Counted from the first letter of the stretch, positions 1,998-45,260 are shown. The stretch: DNA of 51,276 bases from an uncultured Gammaproteobacteria bacterium (GCA_964359565.1 CAYHTN010000001.1:1-51276), one strand, 5' to 3'. Made by a program: numbers and translations. The notes: generated by a model from the letters alone, not told the origin.

Positions 1998-2070
1998 TAA
2001 AACATTATCCACATGATGTGGATAATGTTTTATTTTGCTTCTAATAAGGCTTGTTTTATACTTATCCACA
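1998..2070. promoter_or_regulatory. three consensus DnaA boxes, two of them inside a 35-bp perfect palindrome
   Basis: TTATCCACA at 2005-2013 and 2062-2070; TGTGGATAA at 2017-2025. Positions 1998-2032 form a perfect palindrome (17-bp arms around G2015) followed by a T-rich run, so it could also act as a terminator hairpin for the 792..1988 ORF. Confidence 0.6.
2035..2062 (+). promoter_or_regulatory. candidate sigma70-like promoter (TTGCTT-16 nt-TATACT) overlapping the third DnaA box
   Basis: Hexamers read directly from the sequence. The predicted start near 2069-2071 would drive the ORF-free region downstream. No experimental support. Confidence 0.25.
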
Positions 2071-2979: not shown

Positions 2980-3366
2980 ATGCATTCCGCCGAATTTCTC
3001 CAACAGATGAACGAAAAGCTCCTCAAGATGCGGAAGCAGCTCGAGAGCGATCTTTCTGATGTCACTCAGAAGGATCTTCAACATCCAGGCCAACTGAATG
3101 CTGCCTATAACAGCGGCGCCGAGGGCGCTGACACTTCCGAAGATGATGTCTCTGAAAAAGTCTCTGCCTATGCCGACGAAGTCTCTCTCATGGGGGAACT
3201 CGAAACCCAGCTCCGTGACGTTCAGAAGGCTCTTGAAGCCATCACAAAAGGAACCTACGGGGTTTGCAAATACTGCAATAAAGATATCGACATGAAGCGC
3301 CTAGAGGCACGTCCTTCATCTTCTTCGTGTATCTCGTGTAAGAAACTCTTTACCCAAGAATTGTAG
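2980..3366 (+). CDS. DksA/TraR-family C4 zinc-finger protein
   Basis: 128 aa with an acidic coiled-coil N-terminus and a C-terminal CxxC-x17-CxxC (CKYCNKDIDMKRLEARPSSSSCISC). Confidence 0.75.
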   Translation: MHSAEFLQQMNEKLLKMRKQLESDLSDVTQKDLQHPGQLNAAYNSGAEGADTSEDDVSEKVSAYADEVSLMGELETQLRDVQKALEAITKGTYGVCKYCNKDIDMKRLEARPSSSSCISCKKLFTQEL

Positions 3367-7193: not shown

Positions 7194-7269
7194 GGGCTGT
7201 TAGCTCAGCTGGTAGAGCGCTTCCATGGCATGGAAGAGGTCAACGGTTCGATCCCGTTACAGTCCACCA
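7194..7269 (+). tRNA. tRNA-Ala(GGC), CCA encoded
   Basis: 76-nt cloverleaf folded by hand: acceptor GGGCTGT/ACAGTCC with the G3:U70 Ala identity pair, anticodon loop AUGGCAU, T-loop TTCGATC, 3' ACCA. Confidence 0.9.
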
Positions 7270-7274
7270 CACTG

Positions 7275-7304
7275 AAAACCGAGGTTACAAAAGCCTCGGT
7301 TTTT
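7275..7304. terminator. bidirectional hairpin terminator shared by tRNA-Ala and the recombinase gene
   Basis: Stem ACCGAGG/CCTCGGT flanked by AAAA on the left and TTTT on the right. The recombinase stop codon overlaps the T-run. Confidence 0.6.
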
Positions 7305-8850
7305 AGGTACTTTTTGATATATTGGCATCGTTTGCGTCAGAGAGACCAGACTGAAAATTTGGAAGTTCTGCACGATATTGAAAGGGAGTTTTTAGCTGAG
7401 GGACTACGGTTTTGTCTTTGATGAGGATGTCTGAACAGGTTCGCGTCAGAATCTTCCGCTTGAAATAGTCATCTCCCTCACGAAATTCTTGACCAAGTTT
7501 GAGTCCGTTTTGTTTCTTCTCGTCTCTGAGCGCACGCCAGGCATTGAGCTTCTCCAAAGGTTCAGCTAAAGCTTCTCGGAAGTGAGCAATCTGAGCGATC
7601 TGATTGATTCGTCTCACTTTGTACTCCTCCACCGTGAGGTAGTCCTTGAGCACGAGATCGGTCAACCTCACAAGTCCCACTTCAGCTCGGGCGAGCTGCT
7701 CCTTGGCTTTCCGCGCTACCTTTTCAGGGGAGAGTTCATCCTCCCCAGCCCACCAGGCCATCGCTTCAAAGGCCCAGTCTCGGACGGTGGGATCGATAGT
7801 CACACGATCAAGGGCTTCGGTCATCGCCTGGGTGATGTCTTGCTCTCGAACCTCTTGCTCGGGGCAAATGTATTGTCCTTTTTTTCGACGATCGCAGCGA
7901 TAGTAAATGTAGGTGCGGCCATGCTTCTCATGGCGCTCACCGACTACTTCGCGACCGCAGGAGCCGCAATGAAGCAGATGATGGTACAGGAACTCATGTT
8001 TTGGTTTGGGAATATTTGAAGCATGTTTCCCGTCCAGGAGACCCTGGACCTTCTGAAATTCCTCCCATGTCACGATGGGAGGATGTTCACCTTTGTAGAG
8101 CTCGTTTCCTCGCTTGATCTTTCCGGCATAGAAGGGATTGCGTAGAAGACCATAGATCATGGTGAGACCAATGGGGTGAGCAAGAATCCCCTTGGTCGGT
8201 CTGACGGTCAGTCCCCACTCATCCCTAGCTTTTCGCCAAAGATCGGTGACATTCAAACGATCGCACGAGATTGCTTCCCTCCAGAGCTTGTTCACAAGCT
8301 CGAATCGTTCCGGGTCTGGAATGACTGTGCCTGCTCCAGGAGTAAGCTCATGTTCGTGGGTCTTTATGTATCCCAATGGCACTGGTCCTGGAATCTTTCC
8401 CTTCCTCAGAACATTCTGATTCCCTCGACGAACCGCAGAAGAGAGGTCGTCGCTATATTTGGTCGCAGCACCGAACAAGAGCACTAACATGAATTTGGAA
8501 TCTGAGGCGCTGGTATAGGTGCTTTCAGGAGTCATGATTTCTTTGAGATGGCCTTCGGACAGGTGATAGATGATTTCACCTCCGTCGACCATGTTCCTGG
8601 CAAGGCGGTCAGGTCGCCAAACGAGGAGTCCATGAACTTCCCCAGAACGAATCCGCTTCATGAGCTTGTCGAAGATAGGTCGGCCTGGATCTTTGGCTGA
8701 AGCGCTCTCGACATATTCCTCGTCGATCTTGATGCCACGACTCGTTGCCAGTTCTCGAAGAACATCGAGCTGCTGTTCGATCGAGAGGGCTTGGTGCTCA
8801 TCGTCGTCGGAGGAGCGACGGGCGTAGAGGAGGTAAATGGGGGAGGGCAT
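7303..8850 (-). CDS. large serine recombinase (resolvase/invertase N-domain + recombinase domain + zinc ribbon)
   Basis: 515 aa. The N-terminal YARRSSDDDEHQALSIEQQ carries the catalytic Ser context, followed by LLVWRPDRLARN, a Cys4 ribbon (HCGSCG...YYRCDRR...CP) and a C-terminal coiled coil. Confidence 0.9.
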   Translation of the reverse strand: MPSPIYLLYARRSSDDDEHQALSIEQQLDVLRELATSRGIKIDEEYVESASAKDPGRPIFDKLMKRIRSGEVHGLLVWRPDRLARNMVDGGEIIYHLSEGHLKEIMTPESTYTSASDSKFMLVLLFGAATKYSDDLSSAVRRGNQNVLRKGKIPGPVPLGYIKTHEHELTPGAGTVIPDPERFELVNKLWREAISCDRLNVTDLWRKARDEWGLTVRPTKGILAHPIGLTMIYGLLRNPFYAGKIKRGNELYKGEHPPIVTWEEFQKVQGLLDGKHASNIPKPKHEFLYHHLLHCGSCGREVVGERHEKHGRTYIYYRCDRRKKGQYICPEQEVREQDITQAMTEALDRVTIDPTVRDWAFEAMAWWAGEDELSPEKVARKAKEQLARAEVGLVRLTDLVLKDYLTVEEYKVRRINQIAQIAHFREALAEPLEKLNAWRALRDEKKQNGLKLGQEFREGDDYFKRKILTRTCSDILIKDKTVVPQLKTPFQYRAELPNFQSGLSDANDANISKST

Positions 8851-8958
8851 ATTGGTGGGAACTGGTTGCCGAGTTTGTGTTCTATTCTTGTTCTATGGTA
8901 ACATAGTCTTAGCTCAATCATTCGGAAGCAGCTCTAGTCTTCTCCAGAATGATGCTAC

Positions 8959-9489
8959 ATGTCTCTCCTCATGCTGAAACGAAAACGACGCACGACCATC
9001 TCAGACATGGTCCACTCACTGCTCAAGGCAGAGGTAACGAATATCTGCCCGCTCTGTGGCAAATTTGAGCGTACAAGTCAGGAGTTCACTGCTCATCACA
9101 TTAACCACGATTCAAGTGTGTCGGAGTTTTGGAACCTCATTCGAATTTGTAGGGAGTGCCATGATGATCTGACGGAGAATAAGCAGGATGGAGTACGAGA
9201 AAAGCGTGTCAAAGAAGTGAAGAAGCAGTTGTTCAGAACCCACTTTGGGCCAGATGCGTGCAACGCCCTGGTTCTTGCTGCTGAAAACGACAAGGTTACG
9301 TGTTCGCCGGTTACGGCTCTTATGCTAGTGCGAAGAGGGTATGTGAAGATGTTTCGGGAGAATATTTTGACAGTCGGACCTGCCACGAACGTGTCGACTT
9401 TTGACATATATGAGATCACGCCAGCGGGTCAGGTTGTCGTTGAGAGGCTGAGACTGGCATCAATGTTTGGAGCACAAGAAAAGTTCTAA
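8959..9489 (+). CDS. HNH-motif nuclease-like protein
   Basis: 176 aa with CPLCG...HHINHD...N..RICRECH, a CxxC/HH/N/CxxCH arrangement typical of HNH. Divergent from the recombinase gene. Confidence 0.6.
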   Translation: MSLLMLKRKRRTTISDMVHSLLKAEVTNICPLCGKFERTSQEFTAHHINHDSSVSEFWNLIRICRECHDDLTENKQDGVREKRVKEVKKQLFRTHFGPDACNALVLAAENDKVTCSPVTALMLVRRGYVKMFRENILTVGPATNVSTFDIYEITPAGQVVVERLRLASMFGAQEKF

Positions 9490-9514
9490 CACGCATCACC
9501 CTGGTCCACCACGC

Positions 9515-9544
9515 AAAATCTCCGCTTATAAGGCGGAGATTTTG
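9515..9544 (+). terminator. rho-independent terminator after the HNH-like gene
   Basis: Stem ATCTCCGC/GCGGAGAT (9518-9525/9533-9540) followed by TTTT. Confidence 0.65.
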
Positions 9545-9591
9545 ATTAATGTCCATAGATCATAATACTGCTTCGGGGTAGAATGTGATTT

Positions 9592-9792
9592 ATGATATCG
9601 AGCTCTTTAGCCATTTTAGGAACTGTGGGCGTAGTACTGATTTTTTTCGTTGCTTTCCTCATTCCGGATCGAACCTTCCCTACCTTCGTACATGGTATAG
9701 GGGGTTTTATAAGAGAACTGCTTTGGGGGATTTTAAACTTCTTTCCAGGTCTTTCACCGTTTCTTCTAAATGTGCAACAAATGGATATTTAG
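9592..9792 (+). CDS. possible small hydrophobic protein (66 aa)
   Basis: ATG start and one clear TM helix (LAILGTVGVVLIFFVAFLI). Weak RBS and no homology recognised. Confidence 0.3.
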   Translation: MISSSLAILGTVGVVLIFFVAFLIPDRTFPTFVHGIGGFIRELLWGILNFFPGLSPFLLNVQQMDI

Positions 9793-9821
9793 CCTGCGGT
9801 GAGGCAGGGAGAAGTGGGGCG

Positions 9822-9968
9822 ATGACCTTAGAGTATAGAGGTGAATATGTTTGTTACAGTCGTTTCCGTAAGACCTGTCGTAAGCAGAATGATGGTACAT
9901 GCGGATGGGATCAAGATGAAGAAATGCGAGTAAAAAGCTGTATAGCCAAGGAAGAGTATGTTGATTAA
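9822..9968 (+). CDS. possible 48-aa cysteine-containing peptide
   Basis: ATG at 9822 preceded by GGGAGAAG. Sequence MTLEYRGEYVCYSRFRKTCRKQNDGTCGWDQDEEMRVKSCIAKEEYVD has four Cys. This is the C-terminal part of tracked ORF 9585..9968. Confidence 0.2.
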   Translation: MTLEYRGEYVCYSRFRKTCRKQNDGTCGWDQDEEMRVKSCIAKEEYVD

Positions 9969-10083
9969 ACACAAGCGCGATTCATTGAACATAGAACTTC
10001 TTACGCCAAGCCGATGACATTAAGTGCCAATCAAATTTTTGCGCTCCATTGACCACGCGTAAGTAAGTAGAGATAATTCTTCC

Positions 10084-10632
10084 ATGAACAACGTTCGAAC
10101 GCTTCTCATGGTCACGGGCAATCAAAATAAAGCCAACGAAGTTGGCGATATCATCGGAATGCCCATAGAAGCCGTAAAACTCGATATCTTGGAAATTCAA
10201 TCTCTGGACGTTGAAGAGGTTGCTCGAGAAAAGGCCCTCGCTGCATTTCGGGTTCTTGGGAGACCAGTCATCGTCGATGACACCGGGATGTCGATAGAGG
10301 CAATCAACGGTCTACCCGGAGCATTGGTGGTGTGGTTTCTCGATACACTTGGACCAGCTGGTTTACTCAAGCTTGTAGCCGGCGAAACAAACAGACGAGT
10401 CACGGTCTCAACCTGTATTGCTTACGCCGATGAGAAAGGTGTTCATACCTTCGTTGGCTCTGTATCAGGAAGCCTCGCTGACACGCTCCGTGGCGAAGGT
10501 GGCTTTGGTTATGATCCAATATTCATTCCCGATGGATCCGATCATACCTATGCCGAGATGTCTGCAGAAGAAAAGAATGCGGGCTCCATGAGAAAGATTG
10601 CGTTGGATAAACTCAAGAAGTTTCTTACCTAG
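10084..10632 (+). CDS. rdgB: non-canonical purine NTP pyrophosphatase (RdgB/HAM1/ITPase family)
   Basis: 182 aa with motifs VTGNQNKANEV, EEVAREKA, VDDTG, NGLPGA and GFGYDPIFIP. Confidence 0.85.
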   Translation: MNNVRTLLMVTGNQNKANEVGDIIGMPIEAVKLDILEIQSLDVEEVAREKALAAFRVLGRPVIVDDTGMSIEAINGLPGALVVWFLDTLGPAGLLKLVAGETNRRVTVSTCIAYADEKGVHTFVGSVSGSLADTLRGEGGFGYDPIFIPDGSDHTYAEMSAEEKNAGSMRKIALDKLKKFLT

Positions 10633-10677
10633 CACCTGTTGACGCGTTATCGAAAACATGGAACGGAGTATAGAAGC

Positions 10678-11193
10678 ATGAATCAATCTTTCATCCCCCC
10701 TGAGCGCATAGAGAGTAAAATCTTCTTGTTTCGAGGTACTAAAGTTATGATGGCTAGAGACCTCGCTCTTTTGTATGGCGTAGAGACAAAAGCCTTGAAT
10801 CAAGCAGTGGCCCGTAATAAGGAACGCTTTCCTGGCGATTTCATGTTCCAACTCACGAAAGATGAAACGGCTACTTGGAGGTCACATTTTGTGACCTCCA
10901 AACCTGAAAAGATAGGCGTTCGTTACGCACCCTACGCTTTTACCGAACAAGGGATCGCCATGCTCTCTAGCGTGCTTAATAGTAAAAGAGCAATTATGGT
11001 CAATATTCAGATTATTCGTATATTTACGAAGCTTCGAACTATGATACGTGAGCATGAGACTTTATATCTAAAACTAGAAGCGCTCGAAAGACGCTTTGAT
11101 GAACAATTTAAAGTCGTGTTTGATGCTCTTCGTAAAATACTGACGAGGGAAGATGACTCAAAATCCGAAATAGGGTTCAAAATTGATACATGA
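10678..11193 (+). CDS. ORF6N-domain (KilA-N-related) DNA-binding protein
   Basis: IFLFRGTKVMMARDLALLYGVETKALNQAVARNKERFPGDFMFQLT matches the ORF6N pattern as I recall it. The ATG at 10678 with GGAG upstream is preferred over the tracked TTG start at 10639. Confidence 0.7.
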   Translation: MNQSFIPPERIESKIFLFRGTKVMMARDLALLYGVETKALNQAVARNKERFPGDFMFQLTKDETATWRSHFVTSKPEKIGVRYAPYAFTEQGIAMLSSVLNSKRAIMVNIQIIRIFTKLRTMIREHETLYLKLEALERRFDEQFKVVFDALRKILTREDDSKSEIGFKIDT

Positions 11194-30808: not shown

Positions 30809-31753
30809 TTAATACCTTGGGGTAAGGGTATAAAAGACGGTCTGAGAATAGGATCCGGGGGCCGTGCTCGTGGCCACGGCAAGTTTAAATAGCTGGGCGG
30901 TTTGATCGCCACTCATGGTTATTTCGTCCGAGATCGTTGGCGACGATTGCACTAATCGAGGTGTTGTTGTCACACCGAAGTCCGTTCCTGGAGACACCGT
31001 TCGCATCCCTATTCCCATAGAGCCATACTCTTCGACTCCCACGGTCACCGCACCGTCCGTCACTGCTGCGATTGGTGAACCTCCACCATTTACAAGATTG
31101 GTGAGCCCCTGCATGTACACAAGATATCCGCTCGGAGCTGTTGAATGAACCAGTATTCGCAGTACCAACGTCGGCTGGCTTGTCGATACAACCGCTCCAA
31201 AGGGGAGAGCGGTCCCACTCAAGCGAAAAACCCCATCATTCCCGCCTGAAGGGACCGGACTCAATGGTCCAGAAGTTTGGAAATTCATCACAGTGATTTT
31301 ACTCCCAACGATCGAAGAGATCTCTCCAATCGCCGTCGCTTGAGCAAAGCCGCTATTTTCGACGACCGCAATCGTATTCCCAACCGAAAAAGCTCCTGGA
31401 GTCGTGACGGTGACCGTTCCCAGACCAGTATCCACCGCCGAGTACGTAGAGTCATATGTTGAAGTCGCAGACTGTGCCGCCACGGCGATAGAAATCCGAT
31501 CGATATTCTCACCTGCACGATATCCAGCCGATAATTTATACGCACTGCCGGTAGAAGTCCCTGCCGCAACTCCTCCAATCGTGTCATGAATTCTATACGC
31601 TGAAGAAGTTGCCGCTTCATTGCCACCGGCATTCAATGAGTCCCAGTCGATACGATAGTTCAAACTCGACATCGCCATCGCCGTTGAAGCAAGGCTAGAA
31701 AAAAGAAGTACCCCAAAAAGAACACGCCAAAGCATGGCATCAGTATAAAGCAT
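30809..31753 (-). CDS. secreted beta-rich protein (first gene of the envelope operon)
   Basis: 314 aa. Signal peptide (LFGVLLFSSLASTAMA), repeated S-x-x-Y-[RK]-[IL] motifs near the N-terminus and a C-terminal APGSYSQTVFYTLTPRY. An ATG at 31735 is an alternative start. Confidence 0.75.
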   Translation of the reverse strand: MLYTDAMLWRVLFGVLLFSSLASTAMAMSSLNYRIDWDSLNAGGNEAATSSAYRIHDTIGGVAAGTSTGSAYKLSAGYRAGENIDRISIAVAAQSATSTYDSTYSAVDTGLGTVTVTTPGAFSVGNTIAVVENSGFAQATAIGEISSIVGSKITVMNFQTSGPLSPVPSGGNDGVFRLSGTALPFGAVVSTSQPTLVLRILVHSTAPSGYLVYMQGLTNLVNGGGSPIAAVTDGAVTVGVEEYGSMGIGMRTVSPGTDFGVTTTPRLVQSSPTISDEITMSGDQTAQLFKLAVATSTAPGSYSQTVFYTLTPRY

Positions 31754-32123
31754 TTTAGACCGTCAGACGATCCACACTTAAATACAAAAAACGTTCGATC
31801 TTAGGCTATGTGACTAGGCTCCTCTAAATGAGTCGTAAAATAAATATATTTTACACGACACCTCTTCAAAAATACTTACGTTCGTAAAAAATCATCTAAT
31901 ACACTTCGCCTTGAACGAGTAATTCTTCCCAATGCAACTTTACAGACTACAACGTCACACCATTTGCCTTTCAACATCCTAAAATTGACAGACAATACCT
32001 ATTATACCAATAAAAAACATCGGATGAGTCTGAACTCAATCTCTCAGACGCACTTCGATGTTAAAACAACAAACAAAGCTGGGCTCTCATCATTATTTTT
32101 GACAAGATGAACAGATATGCTAC

Positions 32124-32423
32124 TTATCCACAGTAAAAATCTTAAAAAGATGGCATATTCTATTTATACACAGCCTTATCCACAGATAAATGACACTATC
32201 GAAGATAGCTAGAAAATTGTTTCACATGAAACATCTCATTTTAAAACTTATCCACAGAGTCTAACTTGAGATCGCGGGCTTGATATTAACCAGACTAGAA
32301 AACGTGATGAATATATTAACATATACACATCTTATCCACAGATATGAAAGTATCTGTCAAACAGCCTATCTACGATACTTTATGTAGTTTTTACATATCA
32401 AAAAATTACAAAACTGTGGATAA
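32124..32423. promoter_or_regulatory. cluster of five perfect DnaA boxes in an AT-rich spacer (candidate oriC or DnaA-binding locus)
   Basis: TTATCCACA at 32124-32132, 32176-32184, 32248-32256 and 32332-32340; TGTGGATAA at 32415-32423. All five share the extended 11-mer CTTATCCACAG. A one-mismatch box, TTATACACA, lies at 32164-32172. Confidence 0.6.
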
Positions 32424-32660
32424 GTTTTTCTATCGCATGCATTACTACTGTTCCGGTAATCATACTTGCTTAGGTAAACAGACGACCTGAATAACCAGGT
32501 ATTAGAACATTAAGACGACAAGCGTCCTAGCTAGTAGGAGTCCGAGGCTCATAATCACAAACGAACGTTTACAAAAACCCCTCTCCCTAAAAAGGGGAAA
32601 AAATGATCGTCGTAAAGAGCCTTACTGAGCAATCTTAAGGATGACTGGGTGTTTAGTGCT

Positions 32661-32688
32661 AAAAAATACAATCTCACTGATCAGTGAG
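32661..32688 (-). terminator. hairpin plus T-run on the minus strand, about 165 nt downstream of tRNA-Ala(CGC)
   Basis: 16-bp palindrome CTCACTGATCAGTGAG (32673-32688), followed on the minus strand by ATTGTATTTTTT. Confidence 0.45.
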
Positions 32689-32852
32689 GCGTATCTGGCG
32701 GGGCATGCAGATCAACTTGTTTTCAACCACGAACGTTACGTCCTGCGCTAAAACGGATTCCAAAATGGACCTATTGGCTGCGTCACCGCTATAGAATGCG
32801 GTAGGTGTGGACCACAACGAAAAAACCACCCTATTCAGGCATGGTCCTTGCG

Positions 32853-32928
32853 TGGTGGACTGGAGGGGAGTCGAACCCCTGACCTCTGCAATGCGAATGC
32901 AGCGCTCTACCAACTGAGCTACCAGCCC
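32853..32928 (-). tRNA. tRNA-Ala(CGC), CCA encoded
   Basis: Hand-folded 76-nt cloverleaf: GGGCTGG/CCAGTCC acceptor with G3:U70, anticodon loop UUCGCAU, T-loop TTCGACT. Confidence 0.9.
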
Positions 32929-33120
32929 ATAAATTGTATCGTGACCCTCATCCAGATTTATTCATCATCATTTAGCTTAGATAAATGTTTCACGTGAAAC
33001 ATTTCAAATGTGGCTAACCTGACACAGGTTATACAATAAATTCTCTGTAGATCCTACTAAGTAGAGAAACAAAGCTAAGGTGTGTTAAATCCATCTCTCT
33101 AACCACCGAGCTGAGCTCGG

Positions 33121-33196
33121 TGGTGCCCTCAAGTGGAGTCGAACCACTATTTAAGGCTTAGGACGCCCCCGTTCTATCCAGTTGAACTATGAGGAC
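33121..33196 (-). tRNA. tRNA-Arg(CCU), CCA encoded
   Basis: Hand-folded 76-nt cloverleaf: acceptor GTCCTCA/TGAGGGC, anticodon stem GGGGC/GCCTT (two G:U pairs), loop GUCCUAA, T-arm AGTGG-TTCGACT-CCACT. An 11-bp-arm palindrome (ACCACCGAGCT g AGCTCGGTGGT, 33101-33123) overlaps its 3' end. Confidence 0.8.
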
Positions 33197-33210
33197 AAGT
33201 GTCGTAAAAT
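33182..33210 (+). promoter_or_regulatory. candidate promoter P1 for rpsT (TTGAAC-17 nt-TAAAAT)
   Basis: Hexamers read from the sequence. The -10 lies inside the 13-nt repeat AGTGTCGTAAAAT (33198-33210). Overlaps the 5' end of tRNA-Arg on the opposite strand. Confidence 0.35.
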
Positions 33211-33294: not shown

Positions 33295-33323
33295 TTAGAA
33301 AGAACCTGCGAGTGTCGTAAAAT
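33295..33323 (+). promoter_or_regulatory. candidate promoter P2 for rpsT (TTAGAA-17 nt-TAAAAT)
   Basis: Second copy of AGTGTCGTAAAAT, at 33311-33323. Confidence 0.3.
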
Positions 33324-33524
33324 TTGCAATTTATTGATTTTCTTAGGACCCTCAGATTTGGATGCAGTCCGAGGAAGAGTCGAGGCTTTTTACGAAGTGC
33401 TATGGAATAGCGGTGAGTAAAAAACACAGAGTCTGACGAAGGAATGCGCCAAATCTGAGGGTCCGTGCGGGCGGTTGACGGGGAAGGGGGAGTAAGGTAG
33501 TCTTGCATCCATCACTTCTCTGCT

Positions 33525-33788
33525 ATGCCAAATAAGCACGCCGCCATCAAAGACCTGCGCAAGAGTAAAAAGCGCGCCATCACCAATAAACGCCTGAAAA
33601 CACACATTAAATCATTGACCCAGCAGTTGATGAGTCTTGTGAAAGAAGGCAAAAAGACGGACGCGACGGGAATTGCCCAAAAGCTCCAGCAAGCGCTCGG
33701 AAAAGCCACACGCGAGAACATCATCCATCGCAATAACGCGAGCCGCAAAACATCGAACACGCACCGCATGGTGAGCAAGATGAAATAA
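33525..33788 (+). CDS. rpsT: 30S ribosomal protein S20
   Basis: 87 aa, very basic. The MPNKHAAIKDLRKSKKRAITNKRLK opening is typical of S20. Confidence 0.9.
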   Translation: MPNKHAAIKDLRKSKKRAITNKRLKTHIKSLTQQLMSLVKEGKKTDATGIAQKLQQALGKATRENIIHRNNASRKTSNTHRMVSKMK

Positions 33789-33794
33789 AAAAAG

Positions 33795-33826
33795 ACACCC
33801 CTCTGCATCAGGCACGGGGGTGTTTT
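33795..33826. terminator. bidirectional terminator between rpsT and holA
   Basis: Stem ACACCCC/GGGGTGT flanked by an A-run on the left and a T-run on the right. Confidence 0.6.
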
Positions 33827-33828
33827 CA

Positions 33829-34674
33829 TTAGGGTAAAATCAAGGTTGCTTCTTCTTCGTTTGCGTACCCACTACGCTGTAAGAAATAATATAAGATAAT
33901 ACGCGCAAAACGTTCTTCGGTCTTGGCATCGAGTCGCCACGTTTGTAATTTACGGACAATAAAAGAGGGGAGTGTCTGCGCGGCTCCATCACGCACGCGT
34001 AAAAGTGCTCTGATTTGCCCTAAAAAAGCTTGCATCGCCTGATTTGTTTGCGTCACTTTTGCAAGCTCGCTCCGCCACGCAGGACGCGCTTGCAAAAAAG
34101 CATCCGCAAGTTCGTACACCGAAGAAAGTTCTTCTCGATCTATCCCGAGCGAACCACCGGCCGCGCATTTACTTAATTCATTCCAGGCTGCCCACGTGTC
34201 CCCCTGTGTTTGCTCCGCGATCTTTCGTATCACGATCGGGTCTTCGCACTGCAAACGTTTTCCAAGTTGTTGTAAAAACGTCACAAACGCCTCGCCACTT
34301 AAAAGTGGGAAATCATAGCGCGTCACCTTCGTCTCACCGATCGTCGCTTTTAAGAGCGCCTCCGTAGGGATTTCTTCTTCCCGATTCACAATAATCGTAT
34401 CGTCCGTCGCTCGTGCCAGCGCCTGTTTTAAGACCGCGTGTTTTCCTTTTGGACATTCCGCGAGAAGATTCTGGGTTTTTAAAAACCGACGGGGCGTGAA
34501 TAAACTCGGTGTGTGCATCCGTTCGATCAGTTGATCGACAAGAACCGCTCCTGACGTCTCAAGACGTTCAACACTCACTTGTTCTTTATCATATTTCTGC
34601 GCGAAATGCGCTGCTAGTTCCCGAACACGCTCCTGGGCCCGAAACGCGTCTGGGCCAACACAGAGGATAAGCAT
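33829..34674 (-). CDS. holA: DNA polymerase III delta subunit-like protein
   Basis: 281 aa, helical and of delta-like length. Adjacent and divergent to rpsT, as in the Bacillus holA-rpsT arrangement, and immediately downstream of polA. No sharp motif, so the call is moderate. Confidence 0.5.
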   Translation of the reverse strand: MLILCVGPDAFRAQERVRELAAHFAQKYDKEQVSVERLETSGAVLVDQLIERMHTPSLFTPRRFLKTQNLLAECPKGKHAVLKQALARATDDTIIVNREEEIPTEALLKATIGETKVTRYDFPLLSGEAFVTFLQQLGKRLQCEDPIVIRKIAEQTQGDTWAAWNELSKCAAGGSLGIDREELSSVYELADAFLQARPAWRSELAKVTQTNQAMQAFLGQIRALLRVRDGAAQTLPSFIVRKLQTWRLDAKTEERFARIILYYFLQRSGYANEEEATLILP

Positions 34675-37434: not shown

Positions 37435-38409
37435 TCAGGAGATGGTTTTGGCCGCCACTTGGCCGAACCGAAAGAAACGAGCGAGATTCGGGCCTGTCGC
37501 CGGAATCGCCTTGGCACGAACAGGCGGCTGCTTCCTCGTCACGGTGGGCGCAGGCGGGAGCGGGAAGACCGGGATCGGCTTCCCGAGACGATTGCCTTCG
37601 AGAAGAGCGCGGTAGCCATGGCCGCCCATCTTCGTGACCCTCACGGCCAACTTGTCACCGTCACGCTCGAGACTCCAGCTGAGACGTTCGCAGGTGGGCG
37701 GCTTGGGCAGCCGACCGAGCTTGCGCCAGAGACCCCTGTCGTTGAGCTCTTCCGACGTGGCCACGCGTGACACGGCGAAGACCTCGCCCGTCGCGCCGTC
37801 CACGAGCAGCTGGTCATTCCCCGTGCCATCTCCAAGAAGGAGGTGATCCGGCTGTGCCCAGAGCCCACGCCGGAGGCTCCATGCCAGCCGGTTCGCCGGC
37901 TGGCGAGAGAACACCGCCCGCCTCGGGTGAGCACCGAGGAAAGCAGCGAACGAGTCGAACAGGATCCTGAAGCGATCGTTCGTGGGGAAGCCCGCGCCGC
38001 GTACCCCACCGATTTGGGCCACGTACCCCCCCGCACCTACCGCGAAGTTGACGAGTTGCTCGCAGGGACGCCCCTCGAACAAGGTCACCTTCGTCCCCAC
38101 GTCAGAGGGGGCGGTCGAGAGAGAGACCACGAAACGATCATCCTTCCAGGACACACCCGTGACCTGATCGCTCGTCACCCCCGCACGCGTGAAGCGATCG
38201 AAGGGGTCCTGCTCGGCCCTGCCGAGCATCCCCTGAACCACGATGCCTCCCGCTGCGACGTCACGAACCTTGAACCCCATCGCCTTGAGCCCTGAACCCT
38301 GAACCTGTACCGAGAACGTCATTTGTTGAGCCCTGACCATTGAAACCTTGACCCTCGAGGCCCCGCACCCAATTGCGAGACCAAAATAAGCACACATACC
38401 AAGGCACAT
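37435..38409 (-). CDS. hypothetical lipoprotein encoded by a very GC-rich gene
   Basis: 324 aa with lipobox-like FGLAIGC near the N-terminus. 45/60 G+C at 37861-37920, against about 42-47% in neighbouring genes. Confidence 0.6.
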   Translation of the reverse strand: MCLGMCAYFGLAIGCGASRVKVSMVRAQQMTFSVQVQGSGLKAMGFKVRDVAAGGIVVQGMLGRAEQDPFDRFTRAGVTSDQVTGVSWKDDRFVVSLSTAPSDVGTKVTLFEGRPCEQLVNFAVGAGGYVAQIGGVRGAGFPTNDRFRILFDSFAAFLGAHPRRAVFSRQPANRLAWSLRRGLWAQPDHLLLGDGTGNDQLLVDGATGEVFAVSRVATSEELNDRGLWRKLGRLPKPPTCERLSWSLERDGDKLAVRVTKMGGHGYRALLEGNRLGKPIPVFPLPPAPTVTRKQPPVRAKAIPATGPNLARFFRFGQVAAKTIS

Positions 38410-43673: not shown

Positions 43674-44810
43674 TTATTGTCGAATCGGCATGACCACGTA
43701 TTGGAATCCTTCTTTATCCGCCGGCTTTACCACAACCGCATTCATGGCATCAATCACATGGAGAACGACAAAATCCGTTTCCATGATACTCAGACCGTCA
43801 TTCATGTATTTGAAATTCAAGGTCACTTTATTTGATTCACCCTCAACGACGGCGTGTAATTTCGCCGTGTGCGCACCTGTGCCGGTATCCGCGGAAGAAA
43901 CCGTGAGCATGCCTTCGGTCGACATTTCAAAGAGAACGTCGTAAATACCTTGGCGAGAAAAAAGCGAGGCGGCACGGATCGCTTTCATGAGCTCCGTGCG
44001 CTTCACACGACAATTGGTGCGGAACTGTTTGGGGATAATCTGTTTATAGTCGGGAAAAGATCCTTCAATCAACCGAGAAACGAGTTCGACATTTCCAAAC
44101 GAGACGGCGAGCTGACTATCCGTCATCGACCACTCAATAAATTGTGGCATCCCAACCTCATCCTTGTATCCTGAAAGGATACGGCCGATTTCCTGCATCG
44201 CACGCGCGGGAATAATGCACTTCTTTTCCACATCTGAGCCCGCGCCTGTGGCTAAGTGCGCTTGGCGCTCCGCTAGACGATACGAATCCGTTGCCGCCAT
44301 CACCAAAGAATCTTTTCCACCTTGAGTATTAAAGAAACAGGCAACGCCACTAAGCTCAGGGCGAGAGTCCGAAACCGAAACCGCGAAAGCGACTTGGGAA
44401 ATCGCGTGGCGCAAAGGCTCCGCCTCCATCCGAAACGAGAGATCTTTTGCTAAACGTGGGATCAGAGGAAACTCTGTTGCGACAAGGCCCTTGATATTTG
44501 TCGTTTTTCCATCAGCCCGAATCTCGAGCTGATCATTCTTAAGCGCAAGCTCGACTTTTCCTTCGCCGAGAAGCCCGATGTAGTCCTGAAATAATTTTGC
44601 GGGCACCGTAAACTCTCCTGGCTGATCTACCTTGCCACGTACGAGCACAGATGTCGCCATCTCCAAATTCGTGGCCGAAATTCGAAGGTTGCCGCCATCG
44701 GTTTGCAGGAGTACGTGAGAGAGAATCGGAAGATTCGCGTTCTTCCCAGCCACGTGCGCGACTAGGGAAAGACCTTGAGCGAGATTTTCTTGAGTGCAAG
44801 CGAAGTTCAT
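43674..44810 (-). CDS. dnaN: DNA polymerase III beta sliding clamp
   Basis: 378 aa, with the three-domain clamp pattern (MNFACTQENLAQGLSLVAHVAGKNANLPILSHVLL... to ...VVMPIRQ). Located immediately downstream of dnaA. Confidence 0.93.
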   Translation of the reverse strand: MNFACTQENLAQGLSLVAHVAGKNANLPILSHVLLQTDGGNLRISATNLEMATSVLVRGKVDQPGEFTVPAKLFQDYIGLLGEGKVELALKNDQLEIRADGKTTNIKGLVATEFPLIPRLAKDLSFRMEAEPLRHAISQVAFAVSVSDSRPELSGVACFFNTQGGKDSLVMAATDSYRLAERQAHLATGAGSDVEKKCIIPARAMQEIGRILSGYKDEVGMPQFIEWSMTDSQLAVSFGNVELVSRLIEGSFPDYKQIIPKQFRTNCRVKRTELMKAIRAASLFSRQGIYDVLFEMSTEGMLTVSSADTGTGAHTAKLHAVVEGESNKVTLNFKYMNDGLSIMETDFVVLHVIDAMNAVVVKPADKEGFQYVVMPIRQ

Positions 44811-45114
44811 AGGAGATCAGTGTACCTAGACCTTGTACGTGTGGCGAATCGGTTCGTCAATAACCCCAAGATCCCCATACTTGGCGCATACCTTTGTCGC
44901 TCACTGCGTTTTTTGTTCACCGCTATTTCCATAGCGTCTCACAAAAAGCCTCGTTCGCTTCGCGGTCTGCATCCAAGTATGGGGATCTTGAAACAATGAT
45001 CGACTTCTTTCCCCAGCTCTCTGTATTAAAGAGATTTATATATAACTCAGTAGTAATAGTAATAAGGGCTGTGAGGTATGGGGACAGCGTCCGAATTTAA
45101 CTGGGTTGAGAGTA

Positions 45115-45144
45115 GAAACACCGTGGATCTGTCCACGGTGTTTC
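45115..45144. other. 13-bp perfect stem with tetraloop, downstream of dnaA
   Basis: GAAACACCGTGGA-TCTG-TCCACGGTGTTTC. No U-run on either strand, so its role (intrinsic terminator or protein site) is unresolved. Confidence 0.5.
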
Positions 45145-45260
45145 TGTGTACTGACTGTGTGAGGTGAGGGACTCGCTCTGGATAAGTGTGTGCAAGAGGG
45201 GCTGGATAGGGTTTTATTCTCTTTCTATACACGCTCGTGAACAGGCTTACCCCCATCTGA

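Follow-up and report, generated by a model that had tools for sequence, protein, structure and literature searches.

The window analysed here is a stretch of 51,276 nt that makes up the entire contig C1 of a draft genome (G000; 159 contigs, 1.37 Mb). At about 32 kb, an intergenic spacer of 1,099 bp (31754-32852) lies between a pilus-like envelope operon and two tRNA genes, with rpsT just past the latter (Table 1). The G+C content is 37.9% in this spacer and 30.7% in the 300 bp that carry a cluster of DnaA boxes, compared with 50.6% for the whole window. No coding-looking ORF longer than 48 aa was found in the box spacer, and an Rfam search of the whole window returned four tRNAs only, with no ncRNA match in the box spacer. 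The first-pass annotation of a gene-free, AT-rich region of 1.1 kb was thus confirmed. In the neighbourhood, a 105-aa antisense ORF (33512-33829, − strand) covers all of rpsT, and naive longest-ORF calling picks the antisense frame. An ORF at 37435-38409, with a G+C content of 64%, had been called holA; it had no Pfam match, and the name was left unsupported.

The genome belongs to an ultra-small bacterium of the CPR (Uhrbacteria). Many of its close relatives, all from one automated MAG series, are titled "uncultured Gammaproteobacteria", a label that appears to be wrong, as DnaA identity and synteny place them in the Patescibacteria/Uhrbacteria. The gene order of the family is dnaA, dnaN, a class A PBP gene, a small gene, polA, a hypothetical gene, rpsT, the spacer and the pilus-like operon, and the spacer carries tRNA-Arg and usually tRNA-Ala. 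Because this order is conserved in the family, the orthologous spacers are directly comparable.

Table 1 Coordinates of the 32-kb locus, the putative replication origin and a second DnaA-box cluster in the window
Feature	Position	Strand	Basis or remark
Second origin-proximal cluster, three perfect DnaA boxes	2005-2070		Kept in G014 at 971.0-971.5 kb
Pilus-like envelope operon, first gene; left syntenic anchor	30809-31753	−	Gene call, synteny
DnaA box 1, perfect TTATCCACA in CTTATCCACAG	32124-32132	+	Motif match
One-mismatch DnaA box TTATACACA	32164-32172	+	Motif match
DnaA box 2, perfect, in CTTATCCACAG	32176-32184	+	Motif match
Predicted parS TGTTTCACATGAAACA, one mismatch to consensus; boxes 33 bp left and 14 bp right	32218-32233		Palindrome match
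DnaA box 3, perfect, in CTTATCCACAG	32248-32256	+	Motif match
DnaA box 4, perfect, in CTTATCCACAG	32332-32340	+	Motif match
DnaA box 5, perfect, inverted	32415-32423	−	Motif match
tRNA-Ala(CGC)	32853-32928	−	tRNA/Rfam match
Predicted parS TGTTTCACGTGAAACA, perfect, between the two tRNA genes	32986-33001		Palindrome match
One-mismatch DnaA box TTAGCCACA	33009-33017	−	7 bp from perfect parS
tRNA-Arg(CCT)	33121-33196	−	tRNA/Rfam match
rpsT (ribosomal protein S20), right syntenic anchor	33525-33788	+	ORF, synteny
dnaN	43674-44810	−	Gene call
dnaA-dnaN spacer, inferred oriC	44811-45260		GC-skew sign change; four TCCCCA-core degenerate boxes
AT-rich tract ATTAAAGAGATTTATATATAACT, 13% G+C, candidate unwinding element	45025-45047		Composition
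Five tandem DnaA-trios TAGTAATAGTAATAA (3'-GAT/AAT-5' on this strand)	45051-45065	+	Trio definition of PMC8287927
Tandem degenerate boxes TACCTCACA (4 mismatches) and CTGTCCCCA (3 mismatches)	45070-45087	−	Orthologous module
dnaA	45261-46721	−	Gene call

The cluster consists of five perfect boxes, four direct and one inverted, all embedded in the identical 11-mer, with start-to-start spacings of 52, 72, 84 and 83 nt and an additional one-mismatch box between the first two; the array spans 32123-32424. All of this was as first described. Boxes 4 and 5 are convergent and separated by a 74-bp gap. The perfect 9-mer was also rightly said to be in excess: the window contains nine copies against 0.26 expected from shuffles, and at least nine were reached in none of 100 shuffled sequences. 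In the draft assembly, 9 of 24 perfect boxes are on this contig, and the 32-kb cluster ranks first among all box clusters, with a score of 11 against 6 for the runner-up. When one mismatch was allowed, six boxes were counted in 1.1 kb versus 0.22 expected at the genome rate (Poisson P ~1e-7).

The spacer between dnaA and dnaN carries a module of another kind. In the family, two tandem box-like 9-mers lie upstream of dnaN together with a GC cluster of 4 bp, a set of CTA/TTA triplets (four to six) and an AT-rich tract, and this arrangement was present in 15 of 15 genomes examined (11 by automated detection and 4 read by eye). In the window, the + strand reads AT-rich tract, tandem trios, GGGC and two boxes, and the latter are orthologous to CTATCCACA-CTGTCCACA in a closed genome of the same family (G014; 1,032,900 bp). 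The trio run is the single run of at least four strict trios in the 51-kb window. Within the window's genus, it is the degenerate core TCCCCA, and not the consensus TCCACA, that is enriched 15-50 times in the origin spacer. By these motifs, the origin uses weak degenerate boxes, and the consensus boxes, presumably of high affinity, sit elsewhere.

A basal unwinding system (BUS) of bacterial oriC was reportedly described by Richardson et al. in 2016. As defined by Pelliciari et al. (2021; PMC8287927), it comprises boxes, a GC cluster and 3'-GAT/AAT-5' trios. The dnaA-dnaN spacer is alike in its tandem boxes, its GC cluster of about 4 bp, its five or more trios and its AT tract, and the module lies directly upstream of dnaN, as does incC of B. 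subtilis. The two G000 boxes, with 3 and 4 mismatches, fall outside the limits of 2 and 4 mismatches of the BUS search program, whereas those of the relatives fall within them. None of the BUS features was found in the 32-kb cluster. Beside each of its six boxes there was never more than one strict trio, fewer than the at least three trios within 16 bp of a box by which the system is recognized (PMC8287927).

Additional elements were observed around dnaA. In the window's origin spacer, a perfect 17-bp inverted repeat (44868-44884 and 44973-44989) and a hairpin whose stem measures 13 bp and which has TCCACG cores (45115-45144) are located within ~210 bp, between the AT tract and dnaN, that are missing in relatives. 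The repeat was considered as a MITE and rejected, being unique in the assembly and having the degenerate box AGATCCCCA in each arm. The first-pass statement that no box flanks dnaA holds for perfect boxes, but degenerate boxes occur on both sides of the gene. Upstream of dnaA, no boxes other than TTATGCACA (46764) and two-mismatch ones occur in the window's genome. Eight same-genus relatives (L012, L014, L015, L018, L020, L021, L026 and L027) have two or three boxes directly upstream of dnaA, namely TTATCCACA, then T[CG]ATCCACA and usually a third, for example, TTATCAACA, GTATCCACA or TCATCCACA. This set probably serves autoregulation.

The cumulative GC skew of the closed genome G014 showed two clean, balanced arms, with a maximum near 434 kb and a minimum at 932,753, in the spacer between dnaA and dnaN; its box cluster is at 943.0-943.1 kb. 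Plus-strand skew averaged +0.08 and +0.07 for genes on the + and − strands of one arm; the corresponding values for the other arm were −0.05 and −0.07, indicating that the skew reports the replication arm and not gene orientation. All genes from dnaN to the cluster have the skew of the positive arm, including the PBP gene on the opposite strand, which rules out a transcription artefact, and dnaA has that of the negative arm. In three further relatives, the skew minima were at the 5' end of dnaN (108,170 in G003, 75,126 in G007 and 197,831 in G011). Moving the changepoint to the box spacer lowered the per-gene likelihood by 11.4 (G014), 8.1 (G003), 17.9 (G007) and 26.7 (G011) lnL units. Several same-genus relatives have an insertion of 1.8-2.4 kb between dnaA and dnaN (L015 in G007, L014 in G005, L020 in G008 and L021 in G009). 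G007 was the one such relative tested; there, both skew minimum and unwinding module remain on the dnaN side, which shows that the origin is tied to dnaN and not to dnaA.

In the window itself, skew is negative for the genes to the left and right of 32 kb and changes sign at dnaN|dnaA. The absolute position of the switch was taken from the relatives, and the window's contig was used for relative comparison only; in this comparison, dnaN|dnaA was ahead of the cluster by 7.5 lnL units. Coverage peak-to-trough mapping, as proposed in the first-pass annotation, would hardly resolve the two sites, since 13 kb in a ~1.4-Mb genome translates into a difference in depth of a few per cent at most under any realistic replication index. 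A single-changepoint optimum at 7.2 kb, obtained from the window alone, was discarded as an artefact of a positive-skew island at 7.3-11.2 kb. This island comprises five genes (7303-11193) of lower G+C content (0.41-0.51) within the negative-skew arm and starts beside tRNA-Ala(GGC) at 7194-7269; inversion or acquisition of the segment may account for it.

Taken together, the dnaA-dnaN spacer is the likely oriC of this Uhrbacteria family. The first-pass annotation had asked whether the 32-kb cluster is a displaced oriC and had also considered an origin near 48.5 kb. The latter was about 3.5 kb off, as the unwinding module is at 45.02-45.09 kb, and the former conflicts with the skew minimum in the dnaA-dnaN spacer of all four relatives. 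A displaced, second or bipartite-partner origin, at which replication would start or which it would need, could draw on the facts that the cluster is the strongest set of consensus boxes in the genome, that it lies in a gene-free and AT-rich locus, that parS sites, which occur here as described below, are commonly near origins, and that the origin-module boxes of G000 are the most degenerate in the family. Moreover, the most AT-rich 40-mer of the box spacer (17.5% G+C, from 32374) lies between boxes 4 and 5 and equals the tract at 45024 in AT-richness, a composition that would permit local unwinding but is no proof of it. Yet the skew switch is 10-13 kb away in the four relatives, the window contig favours the same site, and the opposite-strand PBP gene in the intervening stretch has same-arm skew. 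The trios adjoining the cluster boxes are insufficient, and the cluster is missing in many relatives, in contrast to the dnaN-proximal module. In addition, the tRNA genes, polA, dnaN and dnaA would run head-on to replication from 32 kb. An origin role is therefore highly improbable; the 32-kb cluster is not oriC, and this reading is effectively excluded.

The cluster is thus separate from the origin module in the dnaA-dnaN spacer, at a distance of ~12.7 kb (roughly 1% of the ~1.4-Mb genome; 10-13 kb in relatives). With five perfect boxes and one one-mismatch box in 300 bp of non-coding DNA, it belongs to the class of extra-origin clusters, defined as at least three consensus boxes in non-coding DNA outside oriC, with a significance of P about 1e-7 to 1e-10.

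The first-pass annotation described the setting correctly as an AT-rich spacer but overlooked a putative centromere in it. In the 1.8 kb between rpsT and the pilus operon, the boxes are interleaved with the only parS sites of the assembly. When the assembly was searched for the 16-bp palindrome TGTTTCACGTGAAACA with up to two mismatches, just two sites were recovered, both in this spacer (Table 1). The palindrome is invariant in the aligned spacers of the same genus and matches the parS consensus and core known from ParB biochemistry (PMC8429893, PMC10547168); the assembly has only two occurrences of the pattern TGTTTCAC(A/G)TGAAACA, which are at the same two positions. A parS site lies between both tRNA genes in 6 of 9 aligned spacers and beside tRNA-Arg in a seventh. 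The parA-parB operon of G000 is on another contig (C9), and its ParB has the ParB_N, HTH_ParB and ParB_C domains and the GERRFRA motif, that is, the chromosomal type. In G014, the operon (417,673-419,372) is near the terminus, ~0.5 Mb from the parS sites.

All 17 family genomes (11 genera) have 2-12 parS sites, essentially every one of them in a single tight cluster, which synteny located in the rpsT-to-pilus-operon spacer in 10 of the 10 genomes examined for it. On the strength of these predicted ParB sites and their synteny, the spacer is taken to be the single centromere of the family, 10-13 kb from oriC. In two relatives, contig breaks fall just past rpsT, on the border of the parS/tRNA spacer (the end of G005:C6, the end of G009:C4 and the start of G005:C2); repeated parS sites may hinder assembly there.

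The boxes are less constant than the parS sites. In 8 of the 17 family genomes, representing 5 of 11 genera, parS is accompanied by a cluster of three or more boxes having no more than one mismatch, and perfect boxes occur in the parS spacer of four genera. In the other nine genomes, boxes in the orthologous spacer are absent, nearly absent or weak; G013, for example, has five parS sites and no box. Therefore, the role of the cluster must be dispensable or replaceable. The first-pass annotation had named a skew minimum elsewhere together with a lack of conservation as evidence against its proposal; the minimum does lie elsewhere, and conservation turned out to be patchy rather than lacking. 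Box positions and orientations turn over even within a genus, which fits selection for site number over precise geometry. Beyond the family, a parS-box linkage was rejected as a general trait of the class, with perfect pairs within 120 bp in 7 of 301 genomes.

Where both motifs occur, they are close. In the window, boxes are 33, 14 and 7 bp away from parS, and in G014 the gap is 0 bp in two cases. The two motifs co-cluster in a stretch a few hundred bp long (P = 0.017 versus the whole spacer). A fixed parS-box pairing was rejected, since short gaps are not enriched within the site-bearing span (P = 0.61), with the two abutting G014 units as the exception; apart from these units, direct DnaA-ParB coupling is thus unsupported by geometry. 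Across the 17 genomes, the number of parS sites was weakly inversely related to the number of boxes (rho = −0.51, P = 0.036, phylogeny ignored), the extremes being two parS sites with five perfect boxes in G000 and 12 parS sites with no perfect box elsewhere. At the genus level, P was 0.10, and we treat this relation as no more than a hint.

These observations bear on the possibility that DnaA acts at the centromere as in Caulobacter, by licensing or triggering segregation or by gating ParB loading, and not in the control of initiation. The parS region of Caulobacter is reported to hold DnaA boxes (Mera et al. 2014, PMC4234595; reviewed in PMC6399470). There, as here, the boxes are situated in a parS centromere that is a few kb away from the origin, and domain IV of DnaA would read both loci. 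Together with this precedent, as relayed by the review, the short gaps, the co-clustering and the weak inverse relation speak for such a role. On the other hand, spacing and orientation are not fixed, the inverse correlation is non-significant at the genus level, and in more than half of the family parS sites are numerous and boxes missing, so that segregation in those lineages is independent of boxes. Caulobacter also differs in phylum, and the boxes of the window are perfect consensus boxes that outnumber parS and are patchy in the family. Overall, we regard a centromere role of this kind as rather unlikely. A further and decidedly unlikely variant would make the centromere a tunable two-protein platform, in which boxes gate or roadblock CTP-dependent ParB clamps and ParB spreading evicts DnaA, so that the potential to initiate and the loading of the centromere toggle each other. 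If this were true, lineages would trade parS copies against DnaA boxes.

An unlikely but live rival is that DnaA bound to the boxes controls transcription of the leftward pilus-like operon, of the tRNA genes or of an unannotated transcript across the spacer; surface-appendage or tRNA expression would then be tied to replication status. Upstream of the operon start, the distance to the boxes is 370-670 bp here and 170-360 bp in relatives of the same genus. Boxes 4 and 5 are overlapped or abutted by weak promoter-like sites of the − strand, and a promoter-like GTCGTAAAAT at 31832 (+) faces the cluster, the same motif preceding rpsT. However, predicted promoters were no better than in shuffled sequence (7 versus 4.2 ± 2.1 expected), the distance from the boxes to the operon start ranges from 170 to 1,450 bp among relatives, and five to six consensus sites over 300 bp, distant from the start codon, are beyond what a promoter needs. 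This rival also leaves the interleaving of boxes and parS unexplained. As regards GTCGTAAAAT, which was tested as a general promoter motif, the genome has 10 copies, half of them in one locus of contig C36 and three in the present locus (31832-31841, 33201-33210 and 33314-33323, all +). Two of these precede rpsT and the third points into the box cluster; boxes and parS may be crossed by a non-coding transcript.

Precedents for DnaA boxes at promoters exist. In P. aeruginosa, a box cluster near the origin, which was named like a second origin ("oriCII"), proved to be a DnaA-regulated promoter of the gidAB-parAB operon, linked to segregation (PMC13438810). The P. aeruginosa boxes are immediately upstream of a mapped promoter that drives parAB, whereas here parAB is elsewhere, in G000 on a different contig and in G014 close to the terminus. 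Some of the B. subtilis clusters of DnaA boxes (DBCs) also control neighbouring genes. Within G000, the third-ranked box cluster (C43:3962-4207; two perfect boxes and one one-mismatch box) is immediately upstream of a LexA-like ORF (C43:4246-4893), which places boxes at a promoter in this genome and suggests a DnaA input into the SOS regulator. A promoter role would be compatible with the explanation preferred below.

We consider it reasonably probable, from the arrangement of the motifs, that the 32-kb cluster is an origin-proximal, extra-origin DnaA-box cluster within the single parS centromere. Of the options raised in the first-pass annotation, that of a titration or regulatory site survives as the preferred one, and the origin does not. 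The cluster is most likely a DnaA sink or a coupling site beside the segregation machinery, titration being the most economical role that we infer for it. The five consensus sites would be occupied by DnaA for most of the cell cycle. As the locus is so near to the origin, it would be copied almost immediately after initiation, and its copying would double a strong DnaA sink and leave less free DnaA for the weak origin boxes. Such an action would be comparable to that of the DBCs of Bacillus subtilis or of datA of E. coli. In addition, because boxes flank parS, DnaA and ParB, and via ParB also ParA/Soj, would be brought together, and this proximity may tie the control of initiation to segregation, in the manner of the Caulobacter centromere. 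In E. coli, datA has an IHF site and promotes DnaA-ATP hydrolysis, and DARS has a box I-II-III core and acts by nucleotide exchange; these are gammaproteobacterial features, and we do not assign the locus to either type.

The second cluster of the window, at 2.0 kb, includes two boxes that form a palindrome. It is flanked by the ORF at 792-1988, which just precedes it, and by a stretch devoid of ORFs that leads to a DksA/TraR-type gene (2980-3366). The G014 ortholog of this cluster ranks third in strength there, and the pair indicates that the family has several origin-proximal box clusters. In G014, the cluster of the parS spacer and oriC share first rank in strength, and the third-ranked cluster likewise lies no more than 40 kb away. 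YabA, SeqA and a second DnaA-family gene were searched for in the genome, and none was found. Consequently, ParA/Soj and the box clusters are the only recognizable candidates for initiation control.

The closest known counterpart is found in B. subtilis, whose DBCs restrain initiation by dosage and position, synergistically with Spo0J (Okumura et al. 2012, PMC3245932); oriC-proximal DBCs were predicted in the same work for bacteria without SeqA and Hda. The resemblance extends to an intergenic cluster of consensus boxes near but outside oriC, to the presence of several clusters near the origin (here at 32.1 and 2.0 kb), to single clusters being dispensable or variable, to a SeqA/Hda-less organism and to ParB/Spo0J sites in the origin-proximal region. 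There are also differences. The DBCs of B. subtilis are merely described as sharing the origin-proximal region with eight parS sites, whereas boxes and parS are interleaved in a 1.8-kb spacer here, in which DnaA binding is predicted from sequence, and no YabA was found.

In the literature, we found no published account of the replication start, chromosome segregation, oriC or parS in CPR/Patescibacteria. The locus would add to kinds already known, namely, a DBC-like cluster and DnaA boxes at a centromere. For origin prediction, programs that rely on the density of perfect boxes would misplace the origin of G000 by ~13 kb. The analysis places the likely oriC and the single compact centromere of one Uhrbacteria family, and it indicates that in some lineages the strongest predicted DnaA-binding DNA lies in the centromere and not at the origin. 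The locus may serve as an in-vitro test case for DnaA-ParB crosstalk in organisms that apparently lack YabA, SeqA and Hda.
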